NCBI GenBank assembly: GCA_044378415.1
Contig: JBILXO010000001.1
Span: 11,130-75,129, forward strand
Origin: Holosporales bacterium
Lineage (GTDB): Bacteria; Pseudomonadota; Alphaproteobacteria; Holosporales; Holosporaceae
Direction of reading: 5' to 3'
Length of the DNA: 64,000 nucleotides
In this document: positions 4,590 to 57,512 of the stretch, in pieces
Position numbering within the stretch: the first letter of the stretch is position 1
Layout: every line of letters begins with the position of its first letter
Notes under the pieces: model-generated
The model's database searches: none
Told to the model about the DNA's origin: nothing
What the model saw: the letters and a program-made list of their open reading frames with translations, nothing else
Position numbers and translations under genes: made by a program

Positions 4590-5147
4590 TTAGGGCACCT
4601 CTTCTTCCGATCCTGGAAATAAGATCCAATGCATTTCATTGTATTTGGAATCTAATTTTGATTCTAGTTCTTCACAATATATCCCTGATAAATATTTAGC
4701 CATATTTATTTCTTGTTTAAAAATGAATTCTTTTTCAATTAAGGTTTTTTTGATATTGCAGCAAGGTGAAATATTCCTTATATCTATGTATTCCAACAAA
4801 GCTTTATGCCGCAATACGTTGACAGCAGTGCCCCTAGCCCACTTTGGGATTGTTGATTTTTTTAAAAAGTCTTTTATTTTTTCACAGAATTCCTTGACCT
4901 CTAGATTGGATTCAAAATCATGAAAATTATTGTATTTTTTTGAAATTTTTAAAGTTAATTTATCCAAAATTTTTGAATTGGAAGATGTAAGTTTTCCATA
5001 TTGTAAATAAGATTCATTTTTATTTTTTGATTGAACCAATTTGGATGATTGATCTAACCCGTTAATATTTTCCACAGGCCATACATGACATGGCCTTATG
5101 CACAAGATCTGAACCAATATCCACAGGATTTTTTTCATTTTCACCAT
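4590..5147 (-). CDS. Secreted hypothetical protein
   Basis: 185-aa ORF, AT-rich and K/N/I-rich, with a hydrophobic N-terminus (MVKMKKILWILVQILCI). I recognise no family. Confidence 0.5.
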   Translation of the reverse strand: MVKMKKILWILVQILCIRPCHVWPVENINGLDQSSKLVQSKNKNESYLQYGKLTSSNSKILDKLTLKISKKYNNFHDFESNLEVKEFCEKIKDFLKKSTIPKWARGTAVNVLRHKALLEYIDIRNISPCCNIKKTLIEKEFIFKQEINMAKYLSGIYCEELESKLDSKYNEMHWILFPGSEEEVP

Positions 5148-13714: not shown

Positions 13715-14179
13715 TCAATCCTGGTAAGCCGAATCCTCATCATCATCACCCTCGTCATCCTCCACATCCTCATCATCATCGAAATAGGCATTCTTTGGCA
13801 GAAGCAGTGGTTTTGTTTCTTCAGATGCCGTTGTCTGTTTTGTTTTTTCAGATGCAATTGTCTGCTTTGTTTTTTCAGATGCAATTGGCTTTTTAATGGG
13901 TGTCACGTTATTCCCATATTTTTCATCCTCATCATCATCCTCTACATCTCCATCATCATCCAAATGGGCACCTTTTTGTATCAGCAGCAGTGGTTTTGTT
14001 TTTTCAGATGCCGTTGTCTGTTTTGTTTCTCTAGATGCAGTTGTCTGTTTTGTTTCTCCAGATGCCGTTGGCTTTTTAATGGGCGAAACATTGGGCCCGC
14101 GGGCATCATCCTCGTCCTCACCATCCTCGTCGTCGTCGCCCTCATCTTCGTCGTCGTCGTCATCCTCCACATCTTCGTT
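13715..14179 (-). repeat. In-frame coding repeats forming the PBP1A tail
   Basis: There are two ~60-aa modules. Each consists of an acidic D/E block, then G(P/N)NV(S/T)PIKKP, then three copies of the octad ASxxTKQT, then KPLLL. A third acidic block follows them. The antisense ORFs at 13690-14284 are repeat shadows. Confidence 0.85.
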
Positions 14180-26767: not shown

Positions 26768-27371
26768 TTATAAAACTGTCACTGGGGCCTATAGGATAGG
26801 GATATTCCTATGAAAAAAAATCTAGATTTTTAAAAATTCCCTCTGTTTCTTGCATCTGCAAAATTTTTTTGAATGACAGTGGGATCCAGTGTACCAGGGA
26901 AAAAATCTTTACCATAGATTGCAGTCTAAATGACCCAGAATTCTGGGTTTCCAGCCCTACGTATTGTGGATTTCTAGCCCTGTTTTTGCGCGCCTTAATC
27001 AAAAGAATTCAAGGGGAAAAACTTCCAGATGGGCAGCTATTTCGTAAAAAGCTCTAGCAAGGAAGTCGGAATTAAGGGGCTTTGGATGACTCCAGCAGTG
27101 AAGTAAGAAAAATTTTAGAGCTGGGTAAAAGCTTGGAAGATTGAAAATTTCCAGCAATGATGGAGGCAAATCCCGAAGGCTTTTTTATGTGTTGCCTGGG
27201 TGGTCGCGTTACTGGTGTGGCCGTATTGCCGGTGTGGGGCTTGGCAGGATTAAACCCAATTGGCCCTATCTGCTTACCTATTGGATTCTGGTACCAGCCC
27301 CATGGGCATTCTATCCATATCTCCACACGGCTGGTATGATCTGTGTTGTTTGCGTGCAAAGATATTGCCAG

Positions 27372-27617
27372 ATGCAGCCTCGTGAAATTTTTGTTCATGT
27401 TACGCCAGGTGCTCGCTCTGCCCGTATCGTGGTGCGCCAAGATCCTGATCGCGGAGAAATCATCGGTGTTTATGTGACGGCAAGGGCCCACAATGGAAAG
27501 GCCAATCAGGCTGTGATCAAGGCACTGGCAGAACATTTTGCCATTCCGCCTTCGTACTTTCGCATCAAGCGGGGCATTCTGTGTCGGGATAAGACTATTT
27601 TGGTGTACCAATCTTAA
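27372..27617 (+). CDS. DUF167 (YggU-like) small protein
   Basis: MQPREIFVHVTPGARSARIV...IGVYVTARAHNGKANQAVIKALAEHFAIPPSYFRIKRG fits the DUF167 pattern (v.pgak / dGkAN / G..sr.K). The longer 27141 ORF start and the antisense 211-aa ORF were not preferred. Confidence 0.6.
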   Translation: MQPREIFVHVTPGARSARIVVRQDPDRGEIIGVYVTARAHNGKANQAVIKALAEHFAIPPSYFRIKRGILCRDKTILVYQS

Positions 27618-27846
27618 GTGGACTGATTTTCCCAGCAATGTCACTGGATTCATGTTATTGAGGCGCTTTATTGGGACTAATCTTCCCAGCAATGCTCTTT
27701 TTTTCATCTTATTGGGGCGCTTTATTGCCCCAAGATTCCCAAGATTTAGATTTTTTTGGGATTTCTCCCCATTCAGGGTGAGAATTTTTTGAATTGCACT
27801 TGAATTTCACTTATTGCCCATCCAAAATGTCCTGACCTTTAGGTCC

Positions 27847-27949
27847 CTGGGTAGAAAATTTTGGATGAATTCAGTCCATCAGATTGAGCCATTTCCAGAG
27901 ACGATTGTTTTTAGAGCCATGGCATGAATGCGGCCATGACGCATGTGAT
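27847..27949. repeat. Left copy of a 103-bp direct repeat; an orphan duplicate of the bolA 3' end
   Basis: 100/103 identical to 29700-29802. Read on the minus strand it encodes HMRHGRIHAMALKTIVSGNGSI-stop, against HMRQGRIH... in the intact gene. Confidence 0.9.
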
Positions 27950-28155
27950 ATCTGGCCCGGGGTGAGTCAGCGATCCATGGAATACAGAGTCACCGGCAAG
28001 AGCAGGTATTTTTAGGGTATAGGTAGGTGAAGCTGGCAGAATCCGAATTAAATCATGGATATGCAATGCCATCGATATGCAATGCTTGGGGTGCGTATTC
28101 ACACCCCGATTGATAAAAAAAATGTAATTTTATATTATTTTTTCAGTTTTTTATT

Positions 28156-29502
28156 TTAAAAGTTTAAAAGTCTGTACAATCTTTCTTGAAGTTTTTCATG
28201 ATCTTTTGAAACTTGTTTAAGATTTTCCAATTCTTTTTTCATCCAATCTTTGTAAGAGCTTTTATCCATTTTATTCACTACACTGCTTTCTATCATTTCC
28301 GCACTTTGTTCTATATTTGGAATTACGGTATCGCAAATACTGTCGATATTTTCAATATCCTTTTTTCTCATATAGCCTTGTTTTTCAGCATTCGTTACAT
28401 CAGCTCGAATCTGTCCTACAAAATTATTTGCTGCACTTAAGTAAGAACTAATTGACTCAAAAACTCCTTGTTGCATTACATTATCAAGTAATTCAAATGT
28501 TCCTACTATTTTAAGACCCAGTATTTTATAAACTGCACCGCTGACATTAGTGATAGATTCTCTGGAAGCATCTTCTAATGTCAGAGTCCTGAAAATGGAT
28601 CTCGCATCCTCTAATACTGAAGTGAATTCACGAAATGATTTGTTGTTAGCGCTTTTGTATTCGTCATATTGCTGTTGTTGGTATTGCTGGTATTGCTGGT
28701 ATTGCTCTTGTTGCTGCTGATTTCTCTGTTGTTGTTGGTATTGTTGGTATTGCTCTTGCTGCTGTCTCTGTTGCTGATATTGATTCCACCCTGTCTGTTC
28801 TTGTTGTTGTTGCTGATTCCACCCTGGCTGTTGCTGCTGCTGTCTCTGTTGCTGATATTGATTCCACCCTGTCTGTTCTTGTTGTTGTTGCTGATTCCAC
28901 CCTGGCTGTTGCTGCTGTTGTTTCTGTTGTTGTTGCTGATTCCACCCTGGCTGTTGCTGCTGCTGTCTCTGTTGCTGATATTGATTCCACCCTGTCTGTT
29001 CTTGTTGTTGTTGCTGATTCCACCCTGGCTGTTGCTGCTGTTGTTTCTGTTGCTGCTGCTGATTGTTTTTTTCGGCATTATCTTTTGACTCTTCATCATT
29101 CCCATTCGAGTCTTTAAGTGGATTGCTTTTTTTATTTTTATCAAAATTAGACGTAAATATCTTATAGAATTTATTCATACTCTCTTCAGTAGATTCGTCA
29201 ATTGACAATTTTTTCAGTAAAGTTTTTATTTTGTCTGGATGAAATAAAAGGCCCATTGCTCCTTTTAAACTTCGACCTCTGTTCAAAGTATTGGGAAGGT
29301 CTGTTTTAAATGTTTCTATGAATTCTTCATTTGAAAAGTTTGGATTTTCTTCTGAAAATTTGCTAATTTTTTTGATTAGCTCAACATTTACATCATCTTT
29401 TTCATCGATAGTTTTGTTTTTTTTTGTAAGTTCACTCATCATGGCATCTGTATTGTTTGTCAAGCATTGTGAAAGCAATAGAATAATTATTATTTTTTTC
29501 AT
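28156..29502 (-). CDS. Secreted protein with a central Gln/aromatic-rich prion-like repeat domain
   Basis: 448-aa ORF with signal peptide MKKIIIILLLSQCLTNNTDA. Residues ~148-282 are almost pure Q, with seven (P/T)GWNQ motifs followed by QQYQQYQQQQ-type repeats. A helical-looking C-terminal domain follows. The flanks are very AT-rich. Confidence 0.8.
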   Translation of the reverse strand: MKKIIIILLLSQCLTNNTDAMMSELTKKNKTIDEKDDVNVELIKKISKFSEENPNFSNEEFIETFKTDLPNTLNRGRSLKGAMGLLFHPDKIKTLLKKLSIDESTEESMNKFYKIFTSNFDKNKKSNPLKDSNGNDEESKDNAEKNNQQQQQKQQQQQPGWNQQQQQEQTGWNQYQQQRQQQQQPGWNQQQQQKQQQQQPGWNQQQQQEQTGWNQYQQQRQQQQQPGWNQQQQQEQTGWNQYQQQRQQQEQYQQYQQQQRNQQQQEQYQQYQQYQQQQYDEYKSANNKSFREFTSVLEDARSIFRTLTLEDASRESITNVSGAVYKILGLKIVGTFELLDNVMQQGVFESISSYLSAANNFVGQIRADVTNAEKQGYMRKKDIENIDSICDTVIPNIEQSAEMIESSVVNKMDKSSYKDWMKKELENLKQVSKDHEKLQERLYRLLNF

Positions 29503-29699
29503 AAATTTTCCCTATGTTGTTTGTTTTTTGCTAAAATTTTTTAACAAATTTAGCGCATCTATAATATAATAAAATGAATTAATTAAAAAAACAATATAAA
29601 ATATGTGAGATTCTTGATTGATTGTCAAGATTTTTTTGAATATCGCAATAAGTGAACGACAGTTGATTTACATCTGAATTGCCAAATGAATTTAACGTG

Positions 29700-29802
29700 C
29701 TGGGTAGAAAATTTTGGATGAATTCAGTCCATCAGATTGAGCCATTTCCAGAGACGATTGTTTTTAGGGCCATGGCATGAATACGGCCCTGACGCATGTG
29801 AT
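29700..29802. repeat. Right copy of the 103-bp direct repeat (3' end of intact bolA plus 32 nt downstream)
   Basis: See 27847-27949. Confidence 0.9.
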
Positions 29803-30391
29803 CCAAGGCAGCATAAACCATTTGATGACAGGCCATTCTGGATTTTTCAGAAAAAGCCGCACTGGCAACAGTGACCGACAAATGCTGATCGTCACCCCTG
29901 GTATCCTGCACCTGAATGACCCCATTGGGAAAAGCGGCAATCAGGCGCGCCTGAATCCAATCCACATTAGACATGAGCGCGTCAGAATCGTTTTCAAAAT
30001 TGCGAAAACGGTCCGCACCCTCGGCATCAGCCAAAGTCTGGCTGCTTTTTGAGGTTCTGGCACTTGTCAAATCCCCTGCATCAGTTTCCTTCCCAGTGCC
30101 CATTGCATGGCCCCTTGGAAGAACACCAATTTCTGCAAGAACAGGGGCCTGACCATTGAAAATTTCATCCCGAAAGCCAATGACCCTATGGGTAGGGGCT
30201 GCTGCTGGGTCAGCCGTTTCTTCAGATTCATGTTCAGAAACCTCTAAAACAGGCGATGGGATTCTGCCATACGCCCTGCCTTTCCCCCCGATGGGTTCTT
30301 TTTCCACAACATCCTCCGCCACGCCACCCATTTCTTTGGTTGCACCAAGGGTGTTGCTTGGAATGGTCCTGGGATGTGAAAAATAAATCAT
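29732..30391 (-). CDS. bolA: BolA-family protein; the BolA domain is the C-terminal 80 aa and the start is uncertain
   Basis: MSNVDWIQARLIAAFPNGVIQVQDTRGDDQHLSVTV..FSEKSRMACHQMVYAAL....RIHAMALKT is a BolA signature. A canonical-size protein would start at 29974. The open frame continues to 30391 as a low-complexity extension. Confidence 0.65.
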   Translation of the reverse strand: MIYFSHPRTIPSNTLGATKEMGGVAEDVVEKEPIGGKGRAYGRIPSPVLEVSEHESEETADPAAAPTHRVIGFRDEIFNGQAPVLAEIGVLPRGHAMGTGKETDAGDLTSARTSKSSQTLADAEGADRFRNFENDSDALMSNVDWIQARLIAAFPNGVIQVQDTRGDDQHLSVTVASAAFSEKSRMACHQMVYAALDHMRQGRIHAMALKTIVSGNGSI

Positions 30392-30450: not shown

Positions 30451-31425
30451 TCAGGATTGAATAATGGGCATCAAATTTGGAAAGATCAAAACATTTTTTG
30501 GCAAATCCTTGGCATTCAATGGCATCGGTGAAAGGCTGTGGTCAGATGGCGCCACAAAGCCAGTGGAACTGAATTCGGATGAATCTGATGGCATGATGGT
30601 GTTTTGGAGATTTTTGATGTTTTGGAATCCATGGTTTTGAGGGTCTTTTTGCTCGCCTGAATGCTGTGCATCGGATCTTAAATCTAAAGATTCTCCCATT
30701 TCAGATTTTTGAGAAGGTCCTTGGGTATACACACCCAGTCGTCGGGCCAATAGAATATAGGGCACCAAAGGAGATGTTTCAGATTCTGCCGATGGATTCA
30801 TGTTCCAAATTTCCCCTGTGCGCAAATCCCGCAGCAATAAATTTTCTGGGGCCAACGGTCCAGCCACAACAAAAGGATCCTCGAAAGAACGGGCCAGTGT
30901 CAGTTGAATCTCGATTAAACTGAGGTCCCAAGCCACCAACAATCCCTGCAAGCAATGGGTTGTTCGCAGTGCCAATGCATGAATTTCATCGATCTCATCT
31001 TGATCAACCCACCCCATGGCCATCAAAAAATCATCGTTTGCATGATATTTCAAGGAAGGCGTTATGTACTCAATGAGGGGAGGATCAAATACGATGTCTT
31101 CTGGAATATGGAAATCCTTGGACAAATCTGCATTGGCGCGACTGTGAATGCGCAGTGTAAAGGGCAGAGGGTGGGTTGCCTGCATCAAGGATTCACGCAT
31201 ATTGCGTGTGCCCAAAAAATGGTTTGGGATATTGAGCTGGGTTAATTTTGAAAAAAGAAAAGCTGAAATGCGATGAGAAAGGGCACCCTTTCCAGGAATT
31301 TCACGGGATAGGCCCGTTATGGGACAACAATGGGTATCGCTGAAAAAATGATACACTTGCCCGGGATGATCGCCTTCGTAAATGGTGTGCCCTGGGAATT
31401 GATCAATGATTTTTTTATAGGTCAA
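30451..31425 (-). CDS. SAICAR synthetase (PurC)-like protein, divergent, with a ~90-aa C-terminal extension
   Basis: Colinear with PurC by eye (IYEGDHPGQVY / IPGKGALSHRISAFLFSKLTQLNIPNHFL / LIEY), but conserved motifs are altered. No other pur genes are nearby. Confidence 0.55.
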   Translation of the reverse strand: MTYKKIIDQFPGHTIYEGDHPGQVYHFFSDTHCCPITGLSREIPGKGALSHRISAFLFSKLTQLNIPNHFLGTRNMRESLMQATHPLPFTLRIHSRANADLSKDFHIPEDIVFDPPLIEYITPSLKYHANDDFLMAMGWVDQDEIDEIHALALRTTHCLQGLLVAWDLSLIEIQLTLARSFEDPFVVAGPLAPENLLLRDLRTGEIWNMNPSAESETSPLVPYILLARRLGVYTQGPSQKSEMGESLDLRSDAQHSGEQKDPQNHGFQNIKNLQNTIMPSDSSEFSSTGFVAPSDHSLSPMPLNAKDLPKNVLIFPNLMPIIQS

Positions 31426-31784
31426 AATAATGCATGAATGAATATAGTTTCTTTAGGATAGTAAAAAAAAGGGATCAATGCAATTTATTTCCAACTTATT
31501 GATAATTTTTTTTCAGAATCCCACCCTGCAGATCTGCCATTTTTGATTCCTCATTGGAAAGACCTCGCACCTTGTTGAAAACTGAACTTTTCCTTGATTT
31601 TCAGGGGAAAAAACAACTTTCTTTTGGGTGAAAATTGTTCTGCTCAGGATATTCAATTATTTTAATCAGGACGCTTTGTTTCTGTGTTATTGCATGTTTG
31701 ACAGAAAAAACAAAAACTTTTTATTGCATCCCACATTTAAATGGTGTAAGAATGAATAGGAAATGTAAAATAAAAGGAACTGAT

Positions 31785-32294
31785 ATGAGTAGTCGTTTAT
31801 GGGAAAATAAGGACAACGTTAAAGATAGAGAGCATATTTTGGAAGCTCTTGGCCGTATTGTCGCTTCTTATGTGGCACGCAATGAGATGCAGCCATCAGA
31901 GGTTTCAGGATTTGTTCAACAGATTTTCTCAACCCTCTGCAATCTTCACCACACGCCCAATGTGCGGTCGCTTCCCCAAGCGCCTGTGGATATCGAAAAG
32001 TCCATTACAGCAGAGTATTTGGTATGTCTCGAAGATGGAAAGCGTTTAAAAATGCTCAAAAGACATTTAAGGACTTCCTATGGTTTGACACCAGAGCAAT
32101 ACCGCGAAAGATGGTCTTTGCCTATGGATTATCCTATGGTTGCCCCTAATTATGCAAAAAAGCGCAGCGCTTTGGCTAAGAACAACGGCCTGGGCACATC
32201 GCGCTCACGGGTCTACCAGCAAAATGCAGCCATGGCAACAATGGGCAAAGAATCTGAATTGGTAGAGGGGCGCTCCACTGTTGTTGGGTTCTAG
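31785..32294 (+). CDS. mucR: MucR/Ros-family transcriptional regulator
   Basis: EYLVCLEDGKRLKMLKRHLRTSYGLTPEQYRERWSLPMDYPMVAPNYAKKRSALAKNNGLG is a near-canonical Ros/MucR C-terminal domain. SD AAGGAA precedes ATG 31785. The ORF track starts at 31635. Confidence 0.8.
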   Translation: MSSRLWENKDNVKDREHILEALGRIVASYVARNEMQPSEVSGFVQQIFSTLCNLHHTPNVRSLPQAPVDIEKSITAEYLVCLEDGKRLKMLKRHLRTSYGLTPEQYRERWSLPMDYPMVAPNYAKKRSALAKNNGLGTSRSRVYQQNAAMATMGKESELVEGRSTVVGF

Positions 32295-32373
32295 TATGAG
32301 ATTTCCAGGATCCAAAAGCCTTTAAACGTGGTTTTTTATCCTGGTTTTCAATGACACTAGGGGCCAGTTTGGT

Positions 32374-32416
32374 AAGGCAATGAGAGATTTTTGATTCTTC
32401 ATTGCCTTTCTTTTAT
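32374..32416 (+). terminator. Rho-independent terminator of mucR
   Basis: Perfect 10-bp stem AAGGCAATGA / TCATTGCCTT with a 15-nt loop, followed by TCTTTTATATTT, about 80 nt after the mucR stop. Confidence 0.7.
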
Positions 32417-32604
32417 ATTTGGTACGCCTTTTTTTCGTTTTAGATTCTATCGAAAAATCTAAAAAATACATAATGAATGAAATAATCAAAAAACAGTTTT
32501 AAAATGGTTTTTTCAAAAAAAATACATCCTTTTTTCAAAAGTAGTTTTTCCTTTGAATAGAGTGGTTTCTGCAAACAAGGGAGAAGAGATTTTTGCTGAA
32601 GTGA

Positions 32605-33438
32605 ATGGCGGTTCATTTGTCTGTACAAAAAACAACACAATCGAACAACAAGAAAAGCAAGGCTGTTCTCTTTATTCATGGGGGATCGTGGGAAGCATCT
32701 GAGTATATGAAGGCCAATCTTTCTTCTGAGGCGCTAAAAAGCCACAACGTCCTCTTTATTACCATCAGAGAAGTTGCGGAAAATCTGTTGATGTAAAAAT
32801 AAGGAAAGACAATCACTTTCTTTGGGATGCAGCAGAAAATTTGGAAGTCGTTTTCAAAATTTTGAAAGAAACAGGGCAGAAAAAAGTCAACATCATGGAA
32901 CACCCTTATGGTGGGGTTCTGGTATCAGGATATGCTTCAAAAAATTCGAATAGAGTCAATAAAATGATCCTTTTTTCCTCAATGCCGATGGGTAAAAAGT
33001 ATGCTGGTGTGACCCCGGATTCCATTGGCAAAAAAGACAAGCTGGATGAAAGAAAATCAAAACATTGGGATTAAAGAGGGTGACACCAGAAGCACCAATC
33101 AAAAGCATGGGCTGGATATATTTCCAATTGGAGAAAAGCCAAGAAATGCCTTTAAAAAATCTCTTAATAAGGTGCAAGAAAATTTAAAAAAGAGTGTGCA
33201 ACTAAAAAATAATAATATTTTGACCAAGCGGATGCTTGAAAATGAATTTTTCCAACATGCTCTCAATGGTAAGGGGATCTTGGGTGGTATAAAATGCAAA
33301 ACCTTGATTATTCAAGGGAAACAGGATTGTATATCCATAGAAAATCCGCGCTTTATAAAAAACACCATTGCAAACGCAGTATTGCAAACGATTCCTGACC
33401 GCGGACATTATCCGCACTTGGAGCAACCAAAAAATTGA
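32605..33438 (+). pseudogene. Alpha/beta-hydrolase pseudogene (in-frame stop, frameshifts, lost nucleophile)
   Basis: Three consecutive ORF fragments in different frames: AVLFIHGGSWE (HG motif), VNIMEHPYGGVLVSGYA (GHSxGG degraded to EHPYGG), and KCKTLIIQGKQD...IPDRGHYPHLEQP (catalytic His region). Confidence 0.75.
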
Positions 33439-33888
33439 TCAAGGAGATCCAAGATTTCTTGAAGCAATCTTAAAAAATAATGGCAAAGGCAATCAGAACC
33501 ATGAGGATGATGGCAGTGGTGAGAATGGTTAGAGCGCTGATGTTGATTGGAACCGTGGGGGCGGTCAGAGCCATTGGAGTGATGAGAGCAATAGGATCTC
33601 TTGGTGAGACCCCCCCGCATCACAGTGGGATTTTACTTGCATCACAAGAGGTTCCTGGCCCTGTTCAATAGGCTTTATCCCCAGAGCTATGGCAGAAAAG
33701 GTAGTGAGGAAAAAAAAGCAACAATGTTTTGGAAGAAGATATAAAAACTATGGGTGCTGAGCAATGGCAGGGCCCTGTTAACATGGCGCAAGATTGTAAG
33801 GGCCAGTACAAATGTGATTGTGGCCAAGCTTTGTAGGGATGAATTGCAATGCTCTGAACCAAAGTGATTCCGGCAGGGCGCAATTGTC

Positions 33889-33924
33889 AGGGGGGATTTT
33901 GTCCAATGTCTCCCCCCTTTTTTT
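33889..33924 (+). terminator. Orphan Rho-independent terminator-like hairpin (G6/C6 type)
   Basis: AGGGGGGA - 14-nt loop - TCCCCCCT followed by T7. No intact plus-strand gene lies upstream. Confidence 0.5.
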
Positions 33925-34226
33925 CACCACCGAGACGGCCATTTTTATTGGAACTGCCACGGAAAATTCCGGATACGACTTGTGAAAACAGGCCAAGAGC
34001 GCCCTGTGGCGCCCTGTTTCTTGCCTGATATCTCGTTCAATAATGACAGAATCTACTTCGGCAATAAGACCTTGATAGTGAACCCATGATTTAAAGTAAA
34101 TCAGTCGAGTGCTTCAAAATCCACTATTGTCAGTATTTTCTTTTTCGCAGTCGAGGCTTCTAAAGGATTTTTTACATCGCAATAGCTGTCCTCTTTCCCA
34201 TTTGCCACGTGTAATGTTGCGTTTGT

Positions 34227-35363
34227 TTAATCTTTTTTGGATTCTTCTGGTTGTTCTAGACTTTGAATTGGCTCTAAATTTTTCATTACTTCCCGATGAT
34301 TTGCCTCGAAATTTATTATTGCTTCCCAATTTATTTTTATTTTTTTATTTATTTTAAATTTCGAAAATACATCATCTATTTGGTTGACAATTTCAGTAAA
34401 ATATTTAATTTTATTATTTAATTCATCAATTTTATCAAATATTTCAACTTTATTGACTTCTGTACAGTACTTTAAAGAAACTAGAGTATCTTTTAATCCA
34501 TACAAGTGGCTGTCGATAAAACGTTCGGATTCATTTTCCAAGAGATTAAAAGTTTTTTCAATATTTTCTCTTTGTGATTGCAATATTTCTGAACTATTTT
34601 TCATACTATTTGTAAAATCAATTGAAGATTTTTTAAATGCTTTTTCACTTTCTGATTCAATTTTAAAAGTAGATTCTCTCCATGTAAAATTGGATGGTGT
34701 CGATCTAAAATTGGCCCATATCCATCCAAAATTGGATGCAGTATTTTTAGATGCAGGCAATTCACTAATTTTAACAAAAGAATCTTCGACTGGTGCTTTT
34801 ATTTCAGATCCGTCAGTTTTCAATGAATTTTCATTAGCTACATTGGAATTAATTGATTTCCAAAGATCCTCTATAGCAGATTGCAAATCAATGATCCCTT
34901 TTACAGCCATATGATCTGCTATTTGAAAAATGTAATTTTCCTCATCATTCAATGTGCCATCTTTTGATTTAAATTTAGAAACAAAACGATCACGGATAGT
35001 TTTATCATCGAGGATGTGCAAAATATGACCAACAATGGCTATATTATTTTCGTGAGTAGATTTAACTTTATAATTAAAGGAACCATCAATAAAATAACTT
35101 TTTCCATTGATATTAAATTCAAAATCCTTTCTAGACAATAATGCATCAAGTACATTCCTTGATATATTTTTCACATAAGTAGGGTGAGGGACTTCTTTTA
35201 GAAATTCTTTAAAATCCTCTTTATTTGCCTTGGAAGAATATTTTTTATTGCGCATTACCGGCCCAGTTGGTTCTTTGTAATGTTGCGCATTAAACACAGC
35301 ATGGGTGGAATAGGATGACATTGCCAGAACGGCCATAGCGATTTTTTTATAATTTTTTATCAT
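34227..35363 (-). CDS. Secreted ORFan protein
   Basis: 378-aa ORF, AT-rich, with signal peptide MIKNYKKIAMAVLAMSSYSTHA. It is K/N/E/I-rich and I recognise no family. Confidence 0.65.
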   Translation of the reverse strand: MIKNYKKIAMAVLAMSSYSTHAVFNAQHYKEPTGPVMRNKKYSSKANKEDFKEFLKEVPHPTYVKNISRNVLDALLSRKDFEFNINGKSYFIDGSFNYKVKSTHENNIAIVGHILHILDDKTIRDRFVSKFKSKDGTLNDEENYIFQIADHMAVKGIIDLQSAIEDLWKSINSNVANENSLKTDGSEIKAPVEDSFVKISELPASKNTASNFGWIWANFRSTPSNFTWRESTFKIESESEKAFKKSSIDFTNSMKNSSEILQSQRENIEKTFNLLENESERFIDSHLYGLKDTLVSLKYCTEVNKVEIFDKIDELNNKIKYFTEIVNQIDDVFSKFKINKKIKINWEAIINFEANHREVMKNLEPIQSLEQPEESKKD

Positions 35364-35881
35364 ACATTTAACCTTTTGTTAACCTAAAAATAGCTTAACA
35401 TTGAATTATTCAAAATGCAACTTTAAAAAGTAAAAAATTTTATTTTTACCGTTATTCTATTGCATTAAATCGTTTTTTTGAATAACTATCAGTAGTTTGC
35501 ATTGGAAAAAATATGAACATGGCCTCTATGTTCCACTTTTTGTAAAAAATCAAGAATGCGCCCAAGCCTGATGGATTGGGGTGAACATCATTGGCCCATC
35601 AGGGCCAGGGGAAATGGACAAGCAGGTCAAGCTTGGGACCAATGGAAAAATCAGTTTTGGGGCCAAAATAGATTCACCGGACGGGCCTTATTCAATGGGC
35701 TACTGGGGAGGTGCATCCAAGGACAGTTCTGTGGGTCCATCAACCTTTTTGATCCCCTATTGGCTTCAGAGATGTCTTCATATCTCTACGCGCCATCCAT
35801 ACCACAAATGGTGTATGGGGGGATTGCCTTCACCCAATAGCCCCCATCACCCAATGGTCGTTTGTAAGAACTGTTTTCTCC

Positions 35882-48205: not shown

Positions 48206-48763
48206 ATGTCATCGAAACCAATACCCTTGTCTGTGCCTGCGGAAAAAGAAAATGAGCCTATGGAATCCGTGGATGATTTGCTAAGTTCCATTCGCCAACT
48301 GATGTCTCCTGAAAAATTATCAGACGATGCTGTTATCGATCTCAATCGTCCCGTTCAGCCTGATACATGGCGCCTATCTGAAAAAACATTATCCGAAAGC
48401 ACCTGCGCCTTATCCTCCTTTATCAGTGCCTTGGAAGAGCCAATCCCCGGCTCCCCGGAAAATGGCTCTGGGCATTCTTTCCAAAAAACATCTGAAACAG
48501 TGGGGAAAAATCGAGATAATGGACATGCGGAAAGTATGCGCGTGGAAGATTTGGTGGCGCAGTGCTTGCAGGCCCCCCTGGATCGATGGATTCGTGAGCA
48601 TTCAGATGTGGTTGCAGCCACGATGCGCAGTCAAGTTAATTTGCACGTTATTGATTTATTGCAACAATGGCTGGATCAACATTTGTCCGCATTGATTAAA
48701 GAATCCATTGATGGGCATTTGCAATCTTTGGTGAATATTGTTCGAAAAAACTCAAAAGAATAG
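48206..48763 (+). CDS. PopZ-like (DUF2497) pole-organizing protein homolog
   Basis: N-terminal NEPMESVDDLLSSIRQLMS (compare PopZ EPSMEEILASIRRII). The middle is P/S/E-rich. The C-terminal part reads VEDLV...LLQQWLDQHLSALIKESIDGHLQSLV (compare LKEWLDANLPSLVERLVREEIERV). SD AGGAG lies upstream of ATG 48206. Confidence 0.6.
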   Translation: MSSKPIPLSVPAEKENEPMESVDDLLSSIRQLMSPEKLSDDAVIDLNRPVQPDTWRLSEKTLSESTCALSSFISALEEPIPGSPENGSGHSFQKTSETVGKNRDNGHAESMRVEDLVAQCLQAPLDRWIREHSDVVAATMRSQVNLHVIDLLQQWLDQHLSALIKESIDGHLQSLVNIVRKNSKE

Positions 48764-48829
48764 AGTGTTCATTTTTAAAATCAGAGTGAAGAGATGGGTG
48801 GCGCCAGGCACAAAATCTTTTTAATGGTT

Positions 48830-48935
48830 ACGTTGTTGATTTATTCCAACAATGACTGGATCAATATTTGTCCGCATTGATTAAAGAATCCATTGATGGG
48901 CATTTGCAATCTTTGGTGAATATTGTTCGAAAAAA
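48830..48935 (+). pseudogene. Decayed duplicate of the last ~106 nt of the popZ-like gene
   Basis: About 96% identical to 48645-48750, offset by 185 nt, and it contains an in-frame TGA (CAACAATGACTGG against CAACAATGGCTGG). Confidence 0.85.
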
Positions 48936-50499: not shown

Positions 50500-50766
50500 C
50501 AGAAGAACAACAGGGCGGCCAGTTGTACAAGAATGGATACTTTTATTGATTGTTGAAAATTCATCAATATCAATGCAATAGATGCAAAAATCTAAAAACC
50601 GATGCGTTCAGGATGGCGTACGCGTGAAACATTCAGAAGAACAACAAAGCGGCCAGTTGTACAAGAATGGACACTTTTATTGATTGTTGAAAATTCATCA
50701 ATATCAATGCAATAGATGCAAAAATCTAAAAACCGATGCGTTCAGGATGGCGTACGCGTGAAACAT
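50500..50766. repeat. Tandem duplication, 2 x ~134 bp
   Basis: CAGAAGAACAACA(G/A)(G/A)GCGGCCAGTTGTACAAGAATGGA(T/C)ACTTTTATTGATTGTTGAAAATTCATCAATATCAATGCAATAGATGCAAAAATCTAAAAACCGATGCGTTCAGGATGGCGTACGCGTGAAACAT occurs twice, head to tail, with about 3 mismatches. Each unit holds the inverted repeat TATTGAT-N12-ATCAATA. Confidence 0.9.
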
Positions 50767-51286
50767 GCAGGCAGATTTTTGAGAAGGAATTTGGGGTATT
50801 TTTGAAAAGGACTTTGGCACGTATACCAGACATAAGTGTATGGTTGGTATGCTTTGTCAGGCTTGCAATCTGCATTGAAAAAATAGGGTGAAGAGATGTT
50901 GCCCTAGGAAAATAGTCCCTTTGCCTTATAGAATGCATTTGCTGATTGGATCCCAAAATACCATGCAGCCTGTCAATGGGGCCCATTGTATGAATTGGTG
51001 TTAGGGTATTCCAAGGGCGGGTGGGGTTTTCTATGTTATTTGTGCCCAGTCAAGAAGCAATTTGCAGCATGAAAGAGACGGATGGGTTTTGTTCATCTTG
51101 AGGCAGCTGTGTAAGGCTTTGAGAAATGGATGCAATGGGCTTGATCCCATACAGGAAAAGGGGTTCCACCGCTGCAACGATTTCAGAGCCCTAGAAGGGC
51201 GATGTTATTGGGATGGGACCCAAGTCTTACCACAACGCATCACGGCAAAAACACCAAATCCCCCAATATCGAACCCTGTGGAAACC

Positions 51287-52294: not shown

Positions 52295-52564
52295 AGTGTT
52301 TGACCCTGGTTATTCAGAAAAAAGCGCCCCCTCAGTGTAATGATTTTCATGAAAAAAAACAGGTCCTTTCTATGAAAAATATATTTTTTTAAAAAGCGTA
52401 GTGTATTTTTTTCCAGTAATGCCGGCATATGCCCACCTGCAATCCCTTGTTTTTGAGCCCCGAAAACATTTCAAAAAAGTGCTATAAAATTAATTTAATA
52501 ATAATCATTTTTTTACAATAATTGCATTATAATTATTTTAAATAAATAAAAATTGCGACTGACT

Positions 52565-53629
52565 ATGTTAAAAGAAACTGCAGCAAAAAACCCAGCAGTG
52601 GCGCGATATTTCATGGGTAGCTTATGGTATGGATGGATTTGTTTTTGCCCCATGACGGTTGTACTGGGCGAGATACAAGATGGTGCGTCGCCATGGAGAA
52701 TAGAGCGCAACGCTGCTGAGAAAAAAGATTTCTTTGCCGCAGATGTTTTTAAAAAAACAGGGATTCATTTGGAAAAAATCACCTCAAAAAAGTATGGATA
52801 TGTGCCTTTTGTTGGACAAAATTCCAAAAGAAACCATATATTCTATCGCCCCGCAGATGCCGTCATTTCTAGCATTGTTTTGCACGATACCATCGGGTCA
52901 CTTTTTTCCACACTGAATAAATTTTCAGATGCCAAGGAACCATTGCTCAATGCCCACTATGTTGTAACGCAAAGAGACAAAAACATCTCGGGTGGCATTG
53001 CCATCGAAATGGTCCCACCGGAATATATGGCTCAGCATGCTTGGCCCAGTTGGTTTGGGGGGAAGGATGATTGCAACCAATTTTCCATAGGCATTGAGCT
53101 GGTGGGCAAGGGCTTTGTCAGTCATGGGGGCAAGCGATTTTTTTATCCTTACGACGCCGATCAAATAAAAACTCTGGGCCCATTGCTGCAAGGATTGGTC
53201 CAAAAATACGGCATCAGGCCTGAAAACATCCACAGTCATGGGGATGTGTCTCCTCAGCGCAAATACGACGTAACCATTGCCTTTCCTTGGAAGACTTTGT
53301 ACGAAAAATATGGGGTGGGTATGGGGTTAAGTACCAACGAGAATACAGAGCAGGCCATTGTCAAAAAGTACCAACCCGTTGTGCCCTTGCCTCAAAAATT
53401 TGATGGTCTGTTTTTTCAAAAATGCTTGTCTCAATTGGGGTATGATACGCGTTTCGCAGAGGACGCCTCCCTCTCTTCAGCGGACCGAGGTGGAAAATGG
53501 ACCAACGTGTACCAGGCTTTTTATGGGCATTTTTCTCGCAACGGAGAATCCCCCAGATGGAGAGGTTCCCCCGATTACAAAGATATGTTTTGGGCCTGGG
53601 CCTTGCTGGCGAAATATTTCCAATCCTAA
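52565..53629 (+). CDS. N-acetylmuramoyl-L-alanine amidase (amidase_2 / AmpD-PGRP fold) with a C-terminal PG-binding-like domain, paralog 1
   Basis: IVLHDT, NAHYVV, FSIGIELVGKG and HSHGDVSPQRKYDVT. N-terminal hydrophobic anchor. The C-terminus (LSQLGYD...FYGHFSRNGESPRW) is shared with paralog 2. Confidence 0.75.
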   Translation: MLKETAAKNPAVARYFMGSLWYGWICFCPMTVVLGEIQDGASPWRIERNAAEKKDFFAADVFKKTGIHLEKITSKKYGYVPFVGQNSKRNHIFYRPADAVISSIVLHDTIGSLFSTLNKFSDAKEPLLNAHYVVTQRDKNISGGIAIEMVPPEYMAQHAWPSWFGGKDDCNQFSIGIELVGKGFVSHGGKRFFYPYDADQIKTLGPLLQGLVQKYGIRPENIHSHGDVSPQRKYDVTIAFPWKTLYEKYGVGMGLSTNENTEQAIVKKYQPVVPLPQKFDGLFFQKCLSQLGYDTRFAEDASLSSADRGGKWTNVYQAFYGHFSRNGESPRWRGSPDYKDMFWAWALLAKYFQS

Positions 53630-53744: not shown

Positions 53745-54866
53745 ATGAGAAAAAAAATTTTGATATATTTTTTGCCAACACTCTGTCTTTTGGCATCTAT
53801 ATTTTTCAAGCCTGGGGCCATTGATCAGGATCCAATAAATTCCCACGATGCCATAGTCGCAATTGCGAAAAAAAATGGTATTACGGTGGAACCACAGAGC
53901 CATTTGCCCGGTGTTCACTATACATTTAAGAAATTTTCAGATGAGAAATTTTCAGAAAAAGAGCATCCAAGAAACCACAGTTTTGAAAGGGAAAATGGTC
54001 AAAAGCCCACATGGATCATCGTTCACGATACGTGTGAGAATTTAGGGCCCACCTTTGGGATATTTACGAGTGGTAAAGAGCCCAGGGTCAATGCCCATTA
54101 TGTAATCAGTGAGAAGGAGATCGGTGGGGCGGGGGAGGATGAGATCCCAGGGGGACAGGTGATTCAAATGGTGGACCCCGTTGATTTGGCTCGGCATGCA
54201 GGTGAGAGCGCCTTTCGTGGAAAAGTCAAATACAACAACCATGCCATAGGCATAGAATTGGTGGGCCGTGGACCCAGATACTCTGAAAATAAAGAAATAC
54301 GCTTTTTTACATTCAATGATCCGGAAAATCTGAAAAAAACCAGATTTCCTTCTTACGATAAAGATCAAATCAGGGCTTGCTTTGGGTTGATTAAAATTTT
54401 ATGTGAAAAATATGGCATACCAAAGGAAAATATTGTCAGCCATGGTGACGTTGCGCCGCAACGCAAATACGATGTGACCATTCGTTTTCCCTGGGCTGAA
54501 TTGTTCCAAGAAGGTTACGGAATGGGCCTAACAAAAAATGAGCTGCAGAATATCAAAAGCAGGATTCCCTCGACATTTAATAGGGACGTTTTCATTCAAT
54601 CGTTGAAAAAATTGGGATACGACATGTCCTTTTGTGAGAAAAAAATAGGGGATAAGCCAGGGGAAATCCAATTAAATGGCACCGAATCAGATGAGTTTCA
54701 ACAGAAGTTTAAAATGGTTTGTCTTCAATTCTATGCCCATTTTTCCCGCAATGGGGAGAGCGAGCGATGGAATGGCGATCCTGACCACAACGACATGGCT
54801 TGGGCAGCTGCTTTGGCTGAAAAATACGAACAATCCTCGTCGGATGATGCCGTAAAAAAGATTTGA
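53745..54866 (+). CDS. N-acetylmuramoyl-L-alanine amidase (amidase_2) with a C-terminal PG-binding-like domain, paralog 2, secreted
   Basis: Signal peptide MRKKILIYFLPTLCLLASIFF. IIVHDT, NAHYVI, HAIGIELVGRG and SHGDVAPQRKYDVT. C-terminus LKKLGYD...FYAHFSRNGESERW. Confidence 0.75.
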   Translation: MRKKILIYFLPTLCLLASIFFKPGAIDQDPINSHDAIVAIAKKNGITVEPQSHLPGVHYTFKKFSDEKFSEKEHPRNHSFERENGQKPTWIIVHDTCENLGPTFGIFTSGKEPRVNAHYVISEKEIGGAGEDEIPGGQVIQMVDPVDLARHAGESAFRGKVKYNNHAIGIELVGRGPRYSENKEIRFFTFNDPENLKKTRFPSYDKDQIRACFGLIKILCEKYGIPKENIVSHGDVAPQRKYDVTIRFPWAELFQEGYGMGLTKNELQNIKSRIPSTFNRDVFIQSLKKLGYDMSFCEKKIGDKPGEIQLNGTESDEFQQKFKMVCLQFYAHFSRNGESERWNGDPDHNDMAWAAALAEKYEQSSSDDAVKKI

Positions 54867-55182: not shown

Positions 55183-55653
55183 CTATCTCCAATTACGAAT
55201 AATATTCTTTTCTTCTAATTTTTCTCCAATTGCATTTACAAGTTCTCTAATTATACCTGTGTCATAGTCGTATGTTTGGCCATATTCGTCACCCGGTAAA
55301 AAACATATCAATTCCTTTTTACCGGGTGCTGACATATCCCTATCGGCCATTTCTTTGTCCACGTCTTTTATAAAACGAACCAAATTTTCTACTAATTTGT
55401 CCAAGCCTCCTTCTTCAATGACAGATTTGCCAGATGGCCCCCCACATTTCCATGGACCAAGGCGTAGTTGAGTACGAGCTTCTTCAAGGCATTGACCAAT
55501 TTGAACCTTTTGCTCGGGTGTTATATTCAGCAATGCTCTTTTGGTTGAGGGCAGGCTATCTTGGGCTTGCGGCCCAATGCTCTCAACGGCAGAAACAGTT
55601 GCAATGCTTCCAAAAATGGCCAAAATCGCCATTATTCTCGTACTCATTTTCAT
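55183..55653 (-). CDS. Small secreted hypothetical protein
   Basis: 156-aa ORF with signal peptide MKMSTRIMAILAIFGSIATVSA. I recognise no family. Confidence 0.6.
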   Translation of the reverse strand: MKMSTRIMAILAIFGSIATVSAVESIGPQAQDSLPSTKRALLNITPEQKVQIGQCLEEARTQLRLGPWKCGGPSGKSVIEEGGLDKLVENLVRFIKDVDKEMADRDMSAPGKKELICFLPGDEYGQTYDYDTGIIRELVNAIGEKLEEKNIIRNWR

Positions 55654-57192: not shown

Positions 57193-57283
57193 ATTGGGGG
57201 GGGTAGACCAAAGCCCCCCCCAACAATTTCAGCCCCATCCCTGGTTTTCGCCAATAATGCCATCAATGACGCAACTGTCAGGC
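57193..57283. repeat. Left arm of a ~90-bp inverted repeat (includes a G8/C8 hairpin)
   Basis: ATTGGGGGGGGTAGACCAAAGCCCCCCCCAACAATTTCAGCCCCATCCCTGGTTTTCGCCAATAATGCCATCAATGACGCAACTGTCAGGC. The reverse complement of 59101-59187 matches it at roughly 90%. Confidence 0.85.
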
Positions 57284-57512
57284 CCATGCCATGTCATGGA
57301 ATAGAGCATCTTGTAAGAATTTTTGACGATAACTCTTGAAACCCAGATTGACCTTCTTGATGCGAGAAAAACCTGTTGAATGGCGCTCTTGATAAGATCC
57401 TAAAGTTTGACTTATTATTTTGACCACTTTTTCGCCAATAAATCTAAAAAACACTCTACTGTACCGGTGTAATGCTGTACCCTTATAAAAAATCCCTACA
57501 TGGTGGAATTCT

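Follow-up and report, generated by a model that had tools for sequence, protein, structure and literature searches.

Organization of the locus

The window analysed here is a 64-kb stretch of DNA whose source, as judged by sequence comparison, is an undescribed freshwater Holosporales bacterium, uncultured and related to Ca. Finniella. The nearest relatives of the purC-like gene adjacent to the locus, found by an alignment-based scan of genome contigs, are from Holosporales MAGs and a Ca. Finniella inopinata MAG, at 57–71% identity. The Holosporales are obligately host-associated (PMC11909080). The group lives within protists, and ciliates are frequent hosts.

Between a bolA-like gene and a DUF167/YggU gene lies an ORF encoding an orphan protein of 448 aa (Table 1). 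A first-pass annotation of this DNA had divided the protein into four parts, and reading of the ORF sequence supports that layout: after a signal-like N-terminus come a K/E/N-rich domain, then the low-complexity domain of Q, W and Y, and lastly a C-domain predicted to be helical. The same ORF is present in at least six assemblies, in which the sequence outside the repeat is identical. It is preceded by a Shine–Dalgarno (SD)-like sequence and a sigma-70-like promoter match, and the count of promoter-like sites in the region is not above that in shuffled sequence. No canonical intrinsic terminator was found 3' of the 448-aa ORF.

Table 1. Features of the orphan gene, its insertion and the flanking genes, with positions in the window
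Feature	Position	Strand	Basis and remarks
Whole CDS, orphan protein	28156..29502	-	ORF list; 448 aa + stop
Signal-peptide-like N-terminus, aa 1-20	29443..29502	-	By inspection: MKK / IIIILLLSQCL / TNNTDA
K/N/E-rich N-domain, aa 21-147	29062..29442	-	GC 0.28; composition
Q/W/Y low-complexity repeat domain, aa 148-282	28657..29061	-	ABC-ABC-B units, then QY-rich tail
123-nt segment (41 aa, one ABC super-unit) absent from 407-aa allele	28840..28962	-	Protein alignment and DNA alignment of five loci
C-domain, aa 283-448 (166 aa)	28159..28656	-	GC 0.32; predicted all-helical, low confidence
SD-like AGGGA	29509-29513	-	6 nt 5' of ATG
Sigma-70-like promoter match TTGACA-17-CATATT	29600..29628	-	10/12 positions
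Inserted segment between repeats, 1750 nt	27950..29699	.	GC profile; empty site in relatives
Direct repeat copy A	29700..29802	.	Last 71 nt of bolA-like ORF including stop (22 codons + stop) and 32 nt downstream
Direct repeat copy B	27847..27949	.	Orphaned copy of last 22 aa of BolA
bolA-like gene, upstream flank	29732..30391	-	Pfam BolA on JGI gene call, NCBIfam, tblastn to relatives; 3' end is the duplicated target
DUF167/YggU gene, downstream flank	27141..27617	+	Pfam, synteny; direct bolA neighbour in related genomes

Insertion at the 3' end of bolA

The gene lies in an AT-rich block (28100–29699) with GC of 0.235–0.33 outside the repeat, a sharp drop; a 150-nt piece of normal GC (27950–28100) completes the inserted segment. 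Direct repeats of 103 nt, with three mismatches between the two copies and sharp borders, flank this segment. In four relatives (L005/L008, L010, L011 and GCA_041447055.1) bolA directly adjoins DUF167 and the site is empty, and no similarity of the 1750-nt segment to the rest of the window or to relatives was found. Thus the three features sought in a genomic islet, att-like repeats of the target 3' end, atypical composition and absence in relatives, are all present. The gene is shown to have come as, or inside, this 1.75-kb AT-rich segment. Recombination of the segment at the bolA 3' end left behind the 103-nt direct repeats. It is a lineage-specific accessory gene. A decayed bolA copy beside repeat copy B was considered and rejected, since the duplication is limited to the last 22 codons.

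The junction is occupied in all nine same-species contigs that reach it, and the gene is intact in each of at least nine samples. No excised form was detected, there being no empty site among these nine junction-spanning contigs. A circular junction of the islet, in minus-strand orientation, would read ...CCGGGCCAGAT, repeat, CACGTTAAATTC... Among the called genes from 22.7 to 34.8 kb of the window there is no integrase, transposase, recombinase or other mobility gene.

The Q/W/Y repeat domain

Residues 148–282 had been described as nearly pure glutamine, and the count agrees: 83 of the 135 residues (61%) are Gln, accompanied by 10 Tyr, 8 Asn, 7 Gly and 7 Trp. There is no A, V, L, I, M, F or C, and 13 of the 135 residues are charged. 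Against the 18 backbone ORFs of the window, in which Gln makes up 4.2%, the Gln excess has a binomial P of 9e-78. A Trp or Tyr occurs every 3–15 residues along the 135-aa Q-rich region. The seven (P/T)GWNQ motifs reported earlier are recovered exactly, at aa 159, 170, 185, 200, 211, 226 and 237, giving Trp-to-Trp spacings of 11, 15, 15, 11, 15 and 11.

The modular grammar proposed for this region also stands, with A = QQQQQKQQQQQPGWN, B = QQQQQEQTGWN and C = QYQQQRQQQQQPGWN in the order ABC-ABC-B, followed by a QY-rich tail. Tandem Repeats Finder returns periods of 123 nt (98% matches) and 78 nt (94%). The two ABC super-units differ by two synonymous bases over 123 nt; the B copies are identical in DNA, as are both full C copies. 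At the DNA level, the seven motifs are very recent duplicates of three unit types and not seven independent events. The Gln codons are mixed (43 CAA and 40 CAG) and the longest uninterrupted Q run is five residues, with interruptions by K/E/R and, every 11–15 residues, by P-G or T-G. Such short, regularly interrupted runs would disfavour long beta strands of the polyQ type.

The Michelitsch–Weissman criterion for prion-like composition is at least 30 Q+N per 80-residue window. The best 80-aa window here, starting at aa 146, contains 57, and together with predicted disorder and the complete lack of aliphatic residues this upholds the prion-like character first proposed for the domain. The FoldIndex of the Q/W/Y domain is -0.68 (predicted disorder), and in a single-sequence AF2 model pLDDT is below 50 over most of aa 123–233. 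AF2 also draws one continuous helix over aa 232–308, with pLDDT 58–73 at aa 231–270. Some of the nominally disordered domain could thus be a helix or coiled coil rich in Gln.

Different assemblies, with flanks 99.9–100% identical, carry alleles of 448, 422 and 407 aa, all of them in frame. The 407-aa allele lacks one ABC super-unit (Table 1) and the 422-aa allele is 78 nt shorter (one BC), so that alleles carry 4, 5 or 7 GW motifs. Collapse of the repeat in other data had been named in advance as a reason for doubting the domain. Shorter in-frame alleles (407 and 422 aa) do occur in other short-read assemblies, and the repeat is a breakpoint for several contigs; the 448-aa form, on the other hand, was assembled twice independently. 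Because of these breaks, the length variation could be a product of short-read assembly.

The GW dipeptides recall, by analogy, the Argonaute hook. As a mimic of such hooks, the motifs would occupy Trp pockets in the host's Argonaute or Piwi proteins and interfere with small-RNA pathways. All seven (4–7 across alleles) lie in a predicted-disordered region among the polar neighbours P/T-G-W-N-Q, and with a spacing of 11–15 residues and a FoldIndex of -0.68 the domain is a disordered multi-GW region of the kind by which GW platforms are defined. The bacterial effector HopT1-1 (bioRxiv 10.1101/215590) and viral GW suppressors such as SPMMV P1 (PMC2904775) act through GW platforms in this manner, and ciliates, frequent hosts of Holosporales, use GW-repeat Piwi partners (PMC5666084). 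However, the regularity of the GW motifs follows trivially from the recent DNA duplication of three units, and a Trp amid Gln may just as well be an aromatic sticker. Mimicry of this kind is highly improbable. It is just as doubtful that such hooks sequester or mislocalise host small-RNA effectors, possibly in Q-rich condensates, with hook number tuned by unequal recombination.

Homology and predicted structure of the end domains

Searches by phmmer among 1.84e9 (1.84 billion) representative proteins yielded no homologue of the flanking domains beyond their own cluster. The only other matches, P0003 and P0004, were rejected as homologues, being unrelated membrane proteins whose resemblance is one of Q/Y/P composition. 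A word-indexed search of 5.8e9 proteins gave no remote homologue, its candidate list being saturated by poly-Q words. No match to the end domains was found in Pfam, NCBIfam or PHROGs, or to the N-domain and C-domain in a PDB sequence search, and tblastn against plasmids and phages was likewise negative. The first-pass annotation knew of no described family with this architecture, and across Pfam and the 5.8e9 and 1.84e9 protein searches none, described or otherwise, came to light. Nor did sequence and profile searches of the end domains place the protein in a known structural family, an outcome that would have told against the original reading.

The two single-sequence AF2 models are poor (pLDDT 49 and 54). 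In the N-domain a helical core spans roughly aa 35–125, the sole part of the model at pLDDT 65–83, and the C-domain modelled alone forms six helices (pLDDT 54). Foldseek comparison with the PDB and BFVD returned only generic helical bundles at E > 0.05; one of these is the best PDB match to the C-domain (E = 0.06, rmsd 13.8 Å). The sequence LLFHPDK at aa 85–91, with HPD at aa 88–90 followed by an F..I..F helix, suggested a degenerate J-domain (DnaJ/Hsp40), which was rejected. The isolated N-domain has no match to DnaJ in Pfam even at E <= 5, phmmer against the PDB gives no J-domain at E <= 10, and there is none among the Foldseek matches of the N-domain model (pLDDT 65–83).

Other AT-rich orphan ORFs are present in the window. 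In a second insertion 5 kb away, the ORF at 34227–35363 has a GC of 0.29 and a signal-like N-terminus, and no homologues of it were found. The apparent gene debris in this neighbouring insertion consists of small ORFs without a Pfam match. Four more AT-rich ORFs with signal peptides and no family assignment lie elsewhere in the window; no paralogy was found between the 448-aa ORF and the window's other AT-rich signal-peptide ORFans. This set of ORFs, two of which are shown to be homologue-free, forms a pattern typical of the fast-turnover secretome of a host-restricted bacterium.

A gene of this kind may also be an ORF that is young or in decay and does little or nothing, in AT-rich DNA of acquired or local origin, whose repeat changes neutrally by slippage and unequal recombination. 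No homologue turned up in the searches above, and the alleles are identical outside the repeat. The near-identical DNA units indicate very recent, possibly neutral duplication, the number of promoter-like sites is at chance level, and the neighbouring insertion contains the apparent debris described above. However, 313 codons outside the repeat remain free of stops at approximately 30% GC (P about 5e-12), and the gene is intact in all of the samples, at least nine in number. In addition, the signal-like N-terminus is well formed and is accompanied by an SD-like site and a TTGACA -35 box, and the mixture of Gln codons is unlike the product of pure trinucleotide slippage. Loss or lack of function is unlikely.

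Signal-like N-terminus and proposed export

The N-terminal sequence is MKKIIIILLLSQCLTNNTDA. Its n-region carries a charge of +2 and the peak 9-aa Kyte–Doolittle hydropathy is 2.79. The candidate cleavage site, judged by eye, lies between TDA and MM, with T at -3 and A at -1. By inspection, the division MKK / IIIILLLSQCL / TNNTDA resembles the SPase I layout of a positive n-region, a hydrophobic h-region of 7–15 residues and a polar c-region, with small residues at -3 and -1. Processing by SPase II as a bacterial lipoprotein was rejected, since the lipobox [LVI][ASTVI][GAS]C is not matched; the sequence LSQ-C has Gln at -1. These features suggest that the 448-aa protein is exported by Sec, to the envelope or beyond.

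A Sec signal alone takes a protein to the periplasm and no farther. No means of crossing the outer membrane was found for the 448-aa protein, and there are no dedicated secretion genes near its ORF among the annotated ORFs. TolC is encoded within the window. Substrates of type I systems carry no N-terminal signal, and for this reason TolC offers no ready route. Type VI systems do not take Sec-signal substrates. It is a type VI system that is the conserved secretion system across Holosporales (PMC11909080).

The protein may instead belong to the bacterial envelope alone, in the periplasm or on the outer membrane, and have no host target. Its Q-rich segment would then be a flexible or coiled-coil spacer that separates the two helical domains. 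The Sec-type N-terminus is the sole targeting feature, dedicated secretion genes are lacking nearby, AF2 predicts a continuous helix at aa 232–308, and Q-rich linkers are common among bacterial proteins (PMC6400439). A housekeeping role, however, ill suits an ORFan missing from all relatives, and the foreign composition and rapid length change also fit poorly. A purely bacterial role is rather unlikely.

Extracellular functional amyloid of the curli type is another possible fate for a Sec-exported repeat protein. The 26-aa BC pairs or the 15-aa units would act as strand-turn-strand rungs, and P-G or T-G turns, Gln ladders and stacked Trp would build a surface fibre or matrix. A Sec signal combined with imperfect repeats that are rich in Q/N/G/aromatics and contain regularly placed turn-formers resembles the general design of CsgA. 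However, there is no match to Pfam Curlin_rpt at E <= 1, no CsgG/E/F-like export gene among the annotated ORFs of the window and no beta structure in the AF2 prediction, and a biofilm matrix is of no obvious use to an intracellular symbiont. Membership of the CsgA-type class was rejected on the first two of these grounds, and a curli-like fibre in general is very unlikely.

Proposed role

We tentatively favour, with a probability of roughly 0.4, a young accessory protein that is exported by Sec to the envelope or secreted, and whose disordered Q/W/Y region mediates multivalent association with itself or with the host. Sec would carry the protein to the cell envelope, from where it may be released, and the helical end domains may serve in anchoring or oligomerization. 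The Q/W/Y region would act as a multivalent 'sticker and spacer' segment in which aromatics and the side chains of Gln engage in numerous weak interactions. These could lead to self-association, as a gel, coiled coil or amyloid-like assembly, or to adhesion to host proteins at the bacterium–host interface. Unequal recombination between units would shift the valency from 4 to 5 to 7 GW motifs with the reading frame kept.

The 448-aa protein is named here a candidate host-interaction factor. The first-pass annotation went further and proposed a candidate effector that acts on the host by aggregating or by targeting condensates, which is wholly speculative. At present the protein is hypothetical and unvalidated, and its sequence comes from metagenome assemblies of a bacterium not in culture.

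If the protein is exported and self-associating, it would represent a rare natural Sec-dependent Q/aromatic prion-like domain in an obligate protist symbiont, and a compact, sequence-simple model for bacterial low-complexity 'sticker' domains at the host interface. Some protists, such as Dictyostelium, have unusually Q/N-rich proteomes (PMC6400439). The case also shows the birth and turnover of such genes, with a single-gene AT-rich insertion on a strictly conserved syntenic backbone and a repeat number that shifts while the remaining genome stays clonal. Should the Argonaute-hook reading be true, a gene without ancestry would have supplied the first GW-platform effector of an intracellular protist symbiont.

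Comparison with known systems

The insertion resembles 3'-end genomic islets with att-like repeats in its AT-rich foreign composition, in the 103-nt repeats that restore the target 3' end and in its absence from relatives. It differs from typical islets in carrying a single gene and no mobility gene among the called genes of the 22.7–34.8 kb region, and neither a vacant site within the species nor a second location of the islet came to light.

N/Q-rich disordered proteins number about four per bacterial proteome, and Q-rich disordered regions are therefore not rare (PMC6400439). The domain is like bacterial candidate prion-like domains, of which PLAAC, PAPA and fLPS predict thousands and the N-terminal domain of Clostridium botulinum Rho is an example, in its extreme Q/N bias (57/80), predicted disorder, interspersed aromatics, few charges and zero aliphatics. 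Like most of them, it has a sporadic, lineage-restricted distribution (PMC6400439). The Rho domain, however, is N-rich, cytoplasmic and joined to a conserved enzyme, whereas the present domain is Q-rich with Trp and lies between two orphan helical domains behind a signal-like N-terminus.

Likeness to the yeast Sup35 N-domain had also been noted. It holds for composition, in that the QY tail (QQYQQYQQQQ...) and the pattern of Q/aromatic stickers recall the QN-rich tract of Sup35 with its oligopeptide repeats, but not for sequence homology. The repeats here are PGWN/TGWN, where those of Sup35 are PQGGYQQYN, and Q runs do not exceed five residues. Moreover, in contrast to Sup35 and eukaryotic Q/Y domains, the aromatics of the first 94 residues are mainly Trp rather than Tyr.

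Multiple GW motifs in a disordered, polar context with spacings above 10 residues are shared with GW182/TNRC6, Tetrahymena Wag1p/CnjBp, viral P1/P38 and Pseudomonas HopT1-1. The flanks of Ago-hook GW motifs are Gly/Ser/Asp-rich. Here, unlike in the GW/WG Argonaute platforms, the flanks are Gln-rich and the motifs are recent duplicates. The Listeria-type GW module, an SH3b-like unit of about 80 aa, was rejected: there is no Pfam match, and GW occurs here in low-complexity units of 11–15 aa.

Precedents for secreted low-complexity or tandem-repeat effectors are provided by the Ehrlichia TRPs and the fungal PEPSI prion-like effectors (PMC8112483; bioRxiv 10.64898/2026.05.15.725075). The Ehrlichia TRPs differ from the 448-aa protein in being acidic and Ser-rich type I substrates without an N-terminal signal peptide, and in having demonstrated host targets. 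Assignment to this class of T1SS effectors, which carry a C-terminal type I secretion signal, was rejected, as a signal-like N-terminus is present and the repeats are Gln-rich and nearly uncharged. The 448-aa protein is nevertheless like TRP32, TRP47 and TRP120 in being a species-specific, disordered, tandem-repeat protein of variable repeat number from an intracellular alphaproteobacterium, and may plausibly be their functional analogue (PMC8112483).

The Q/W/Y repeat domain

The orphan ORF containing the Q/W/Y repeat domain is not a chance reading frame, since its 313 non-repeat codons lie in ~30% GC DNA, in which the probability of their staying open is ~5e-12. The glutamine-rich domain claimed in the first-pass annotation is real: aa 148–282 include 83 Gln (61%), 10 Tyr, 8 Asn, 7 Gly, 7 Trp, 6 Glu, 4 Pro and 4 Arg, with no aliphatic residues. 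Compared with 18 housekeeping ORFs from the window (4.2% Q), the Gln excess has a binomial P of 9e-78, and the best 80-residue window contains 57 Q+N. The longest unbroken Gln run in the domain is 5, and Gln codons are mixed (43 CAA, 40 CAG; 7 CAA and 1 CAG in the rest of the gene).

Tandem Repeats Finder detects a 123-nt period (2.1 copies, 98% matches) and a 78-nt period (2.6 copies, 94%). At the protein level, units A (QQQQQKQQQQQPGWN), B (QQQQQEQTGWN) and C (QYQQQRQQQQQPGWN) are ordered ABC-ABC-B, followed by a QY-rich tail, which is the module pattern previously described. The count of seven (P/T)GWNQ motifs (aa 159, 170, 185, 200, 211, 226 and 237) also stands, but these are not seven independent motifs. 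The two ABC super-units differ at 2 synonymous bases in 123 nt, and DNA identity is complete among the three B copies and between both full C copies; the motifs thus represent three older unit types, very recently duplicated. The signature of Argonaute-binding platforms is a series of GW dipeptides within a disordered, polar stretch; such platforms are used by ciliate Piwi partners (PMC5666084), viral suppressors (PMC2904775) and the bacterial effector HopT1-1 (bioRxiv 10.1101/215590). However, the regular GW spacing here follows from recent duplication, and mimicry of an Argonaute hook, for which the protein would have to reach the host, is the least probable explanation considered.

Flanking domains and homology searches

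The N-terminus (aa 1–20, MKKIIIILLLSQCLTNNTDA) is organised like a Sec signal peptide, in n, h and c regions, and carries T at -3 and A at -1, which suggests export. Read as a lipobox, it has Gln at -1 and fails. The K/N/E-rich region that follows (aa 21–147) reaches pLDDT 65–83 in single-sequence AlphaFold2 solely over a helical core (aa ~35–125). The C-domain (aa 283–448) is predicted to be all helix with low confidence (pLDDT 54 folded alone); its FoldIndex is +0.09, versus -0.68 for the Q/W/Y domain. As the full-length model draws aa 232–308 as one helix (pLDDT 58–73 over aa 231–270), the QY tail may form a Q-rich helix or coiled coil instead of a random coil.

Pfam searches with the whole protein and with each end domain gave nothing above noise, PHROGs gave nothing, and PDB sequence searches gave no meaningful match. 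Foldseek hits in PDB and BFVD were limited to generic helical bundles (E > 0.05), and tblastn was negative for the plasmid and phage collections. A word-indexed search of 5.8 billion proteins returned only two near-identical sequences; because poly-Q words saturated its candidate list, an exhaustive phmmer search of 1.84 billion representatives was run. This recovered the protein's own cluster and two weak matches (P0003 and P0004), rejected as unrelated membrane proteins with Q/Y/P-rich linkers that match only in the low-complexity region. The protein belongs to no sequence family, in keeping with the first-pass claim that no known family has the GWNQ architecture. A curli-like extracellular amyloid is very unlikely: Pfam shows no curlin repeat, and the annotated ORFs of the window include no curli-type export genes. 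A degenerate J-domain, considered from LLFHPDK (aa 85–91), was rejected after negative results with Pfam, PDB sequences and Foldseek.

Length alleles

At least six independent metagenomes yielded an assembled copy of the gene. Protein identity outside the repeat is 100%, and 2.3 kb of DNA differs at the repeat only. The 448-aa form (7 GW motifs) is supported twice, by the window (from a 136-kb NCBI contig) and JGI 3300044533. A 422-aa allele (5 GW motifs) in one sample is shorter by one BC pair (78 nt) and carries E250Q, and a 407-aa allele (4 GW motifs) in three samples lacks one ABC super-unit (123 nt); all three are in frame. Several further contigs stop just before the repeat or at a flanking direct repeat, and because contigs break at these repeats the shorter alleles could reflect short-read collapse. 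Neutral drift of repeats in a young, functionless ORF is an unlikely explanation. The genome seems prone to local duplication, and other duplications in the window are tabulated.

Features of the window discussed in the text
Feature	Coordinates	Strand	Details
Q/W/Y repeat ORF	28156-29502	-	448 aa
Q/W/Y domain	28657-29061	-	aa 148-282
Direct repeat, bolA copy	29700-29802		103 nt
Direct repeat, distal copy	27847-27949		103 nt
DUF167	27141-27617	+	
bolA-like	29732-30391	-	219 aa
PurC-like	30451-31425	-	~80-aa tail
MucR/Ros	31635-32294	+	
Second insertion	32295-35881		5 kb from repeat ORF
Family-less ORF	34227-35363	-	GC 0.29, 378 aa
Family-less ORF	4590-5147	-	GC 0.30, no Pfam match
Family-less ORF	58079-59059		GC 0.36, AT-rich
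Family-less ORF	2249-3196	-	below-average GC, no Pfam match
Family-less ORF	55183-55653	-	below-average GC, no Pfam match
Inverted repeat	57215-57293 / 59091-59169		79 nt, 90% complementary
RlmH-like (by eye)	57513-57938		
Amidase_2	52553-53629	+	
Amidase_2	53745-54866	+	signal-like N-terminus
Tandem duplication	50500-50767		134 nt x2 (97%)
Near-tandem duplication	48636-48935		115 nt x2, 185 nt apart (93%)
Duplication in PBP1A ORF	13799-14092		111 nt x2 (86%)
Duplication, DUF167 gene 3' end	27620-27727		54 nt x2 (80%)

Insertion at bolA

The neighbouring genes are housekeeping genes of an alphaproteobacterial backbone (GroEL, PBP1A, RNase PH, RNR small subunit, Tmk, BamE, UppP, ComF, DUF167, BolA, a PurC-like protein, MucR, TruA, FolC, RseP, Lgt, TolC, PheS and MlaE). 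Alignment of PurC-like homologues identified four loci in the species-representative genome set (57–71% identity), in two Holosporales/Holosporaceae MAGs, one 'Alphaproteobacteria' MAG and one Candidatus Finniella inopinata MAG. The window therefore derives from an undescribed member of the Holosporales, a taxonomy that supports the earlier description of an intracellular symbiont. Only ~aa 117–215 of the bolA-like ORF match the 112–114-aa BolA of relatives, which points either to an N-terminal extension or to a wrongly placed start. The PurC-like protein, at 40 bits, falls below the TIGR00081 cut-off (189.9) and is possibly not a functional SAICAR synthase. Two Amidase_2 (N-acetylmuramoyl-L-alanine amidase) paralogues are neighbours elsewhere in the window, at least the second with a signal-like N-terminus.

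The order MucR-PurC-BolA-DUF167-ComF-UppP-BamE is conserved in relatives, in which the DUF167 gene directly follows bolA across a GC-rich spacer of 170–250 nt; the distance in the window is 2.1 kb. The extra DNA is bounded by direct repeats 1750 nt apart that comprise the last 22 bolA codons, the stop codon and 32 nt downstream; the repeats have sharp borders and 3 mismatches, all in the bolA-proximal third. GC falls from 0.47–0.48 to 0.235–0.33 exactly over 28100–29699, and outside its repeat the gene has GC 0.28–0.32 and GC3 ~0.25, versus 0.42–0.49 in backbone genes. This is the topology expected if a small circular element had integrated at the bolA 3' end, by site-specific recombination or by a single crossover. 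No integrase or transposase was found on any called gene between 22.7 and 34.8 kb of the window, and the inserted DNA matched neither the rest of the window nor relatives. The insertion is present in all nine same-species contigs extending to the junction and is thus fixed in the sampled population.

Other family-less ORFs

Five other ORFs in the window have a signal-like N-terminus, AT-rich or below-average GC composition and no family match (NCBIfam was applied to 2249-3196 among the three marked 'no Pfam match'). No paralogy was found among them or with the Q/W/Y repeat protein. ORF 34227-35363, with no homologue among 5.8 billion proteins, lies in a second lineage-specific insertion. In a related Holosporales MAG the gap between MucR and TruA is 170 nt; here this insertion widens it to 3.6 kb, and no repeats were detected at its flanks. 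ORFan 58079-59059 and the RlmH-like ORF are bracketed by the inverted repeat, which could represent either a repeat element dispersed in the genome or a segment able to invert or move. Given these several ORFs, the Q/W/Y repeat protein appears to belong to a fast-turnover, species-specific set of probably exported proteins, the kind of repertoire that a host-restricted bacterium would be expected to use in interacting with its host. The two AT-rich insertions flank the MucR/Ros gene. As MucR in Alphaproteobacteria silences foreign AT-rich DNA in the manner of H-NS, the ORFans of these insertions may be under its control.

Possible function

We tentatively favour, at a probability of about 0.4, a recently acquired exported protein whose Q/W/Y segment is a multivalent self- or host-association region. 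The basis for this is an intact, recently acquired gene, the signal-like N-terminus, two orphan, predicted helical domains, a centre of predicted disorder that is nearly all Gln, with Trp or Tyr every 3–15 residues, and a repeat number that shifts in frame. Sec would carry the protein to the envelope, with possible release, and the end domains would anchor or oligomerise it. The Q/W/Y segment could then act as a multivalent sticker-and-spacer region, through which the protein would either self-associate (as a condensate, gel, coiled coil or amyloid-like assembly) or adhere to proteins of the host, and unequal recombination between 78- and 123-nt units would tune valency. Precedents are the disordered or repeat effectors of Ehrlichia (PMC8112483) and the secreted prion-like PEPSI effectors of fungi (bioRxiv 10.64898/2026.05.15.725075).

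Against this mechanism, there is no known route for the protein across the outer membrane, and the Q runs are short, broken by charges and by P-G or T-G. Sec substrates are not taken by the T6SS, which also counts against it. The T6SS is the conserved Holosporales secretion system (PMC11909080). The data neither support nor exclude a host-effector role, and a purely bacterial envelope protein in which the Q-rich segment is a spacer is a rather unlikely alternative. The sequence is striking and the insertion tidy; any function we infer is for a protein of an uncultured organism.

Comparison with known systems

The protein stands out for its Sec-type N-terminus, its extreme Gln content combined with Trp-based PGWN/TGWN units, and its encoding by a single-gene AT-rich islet with 103-nt flanking repeats. 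It is otherwise like bacterial proteins with a Q-rich prion-like low-complexity domain, of which there are ~4 per proteome, typically with a sporadic distribution (PMC6400439), and it is similar to the tandem-repeat proteins that intracellular Alphaproteobacteria secrete.
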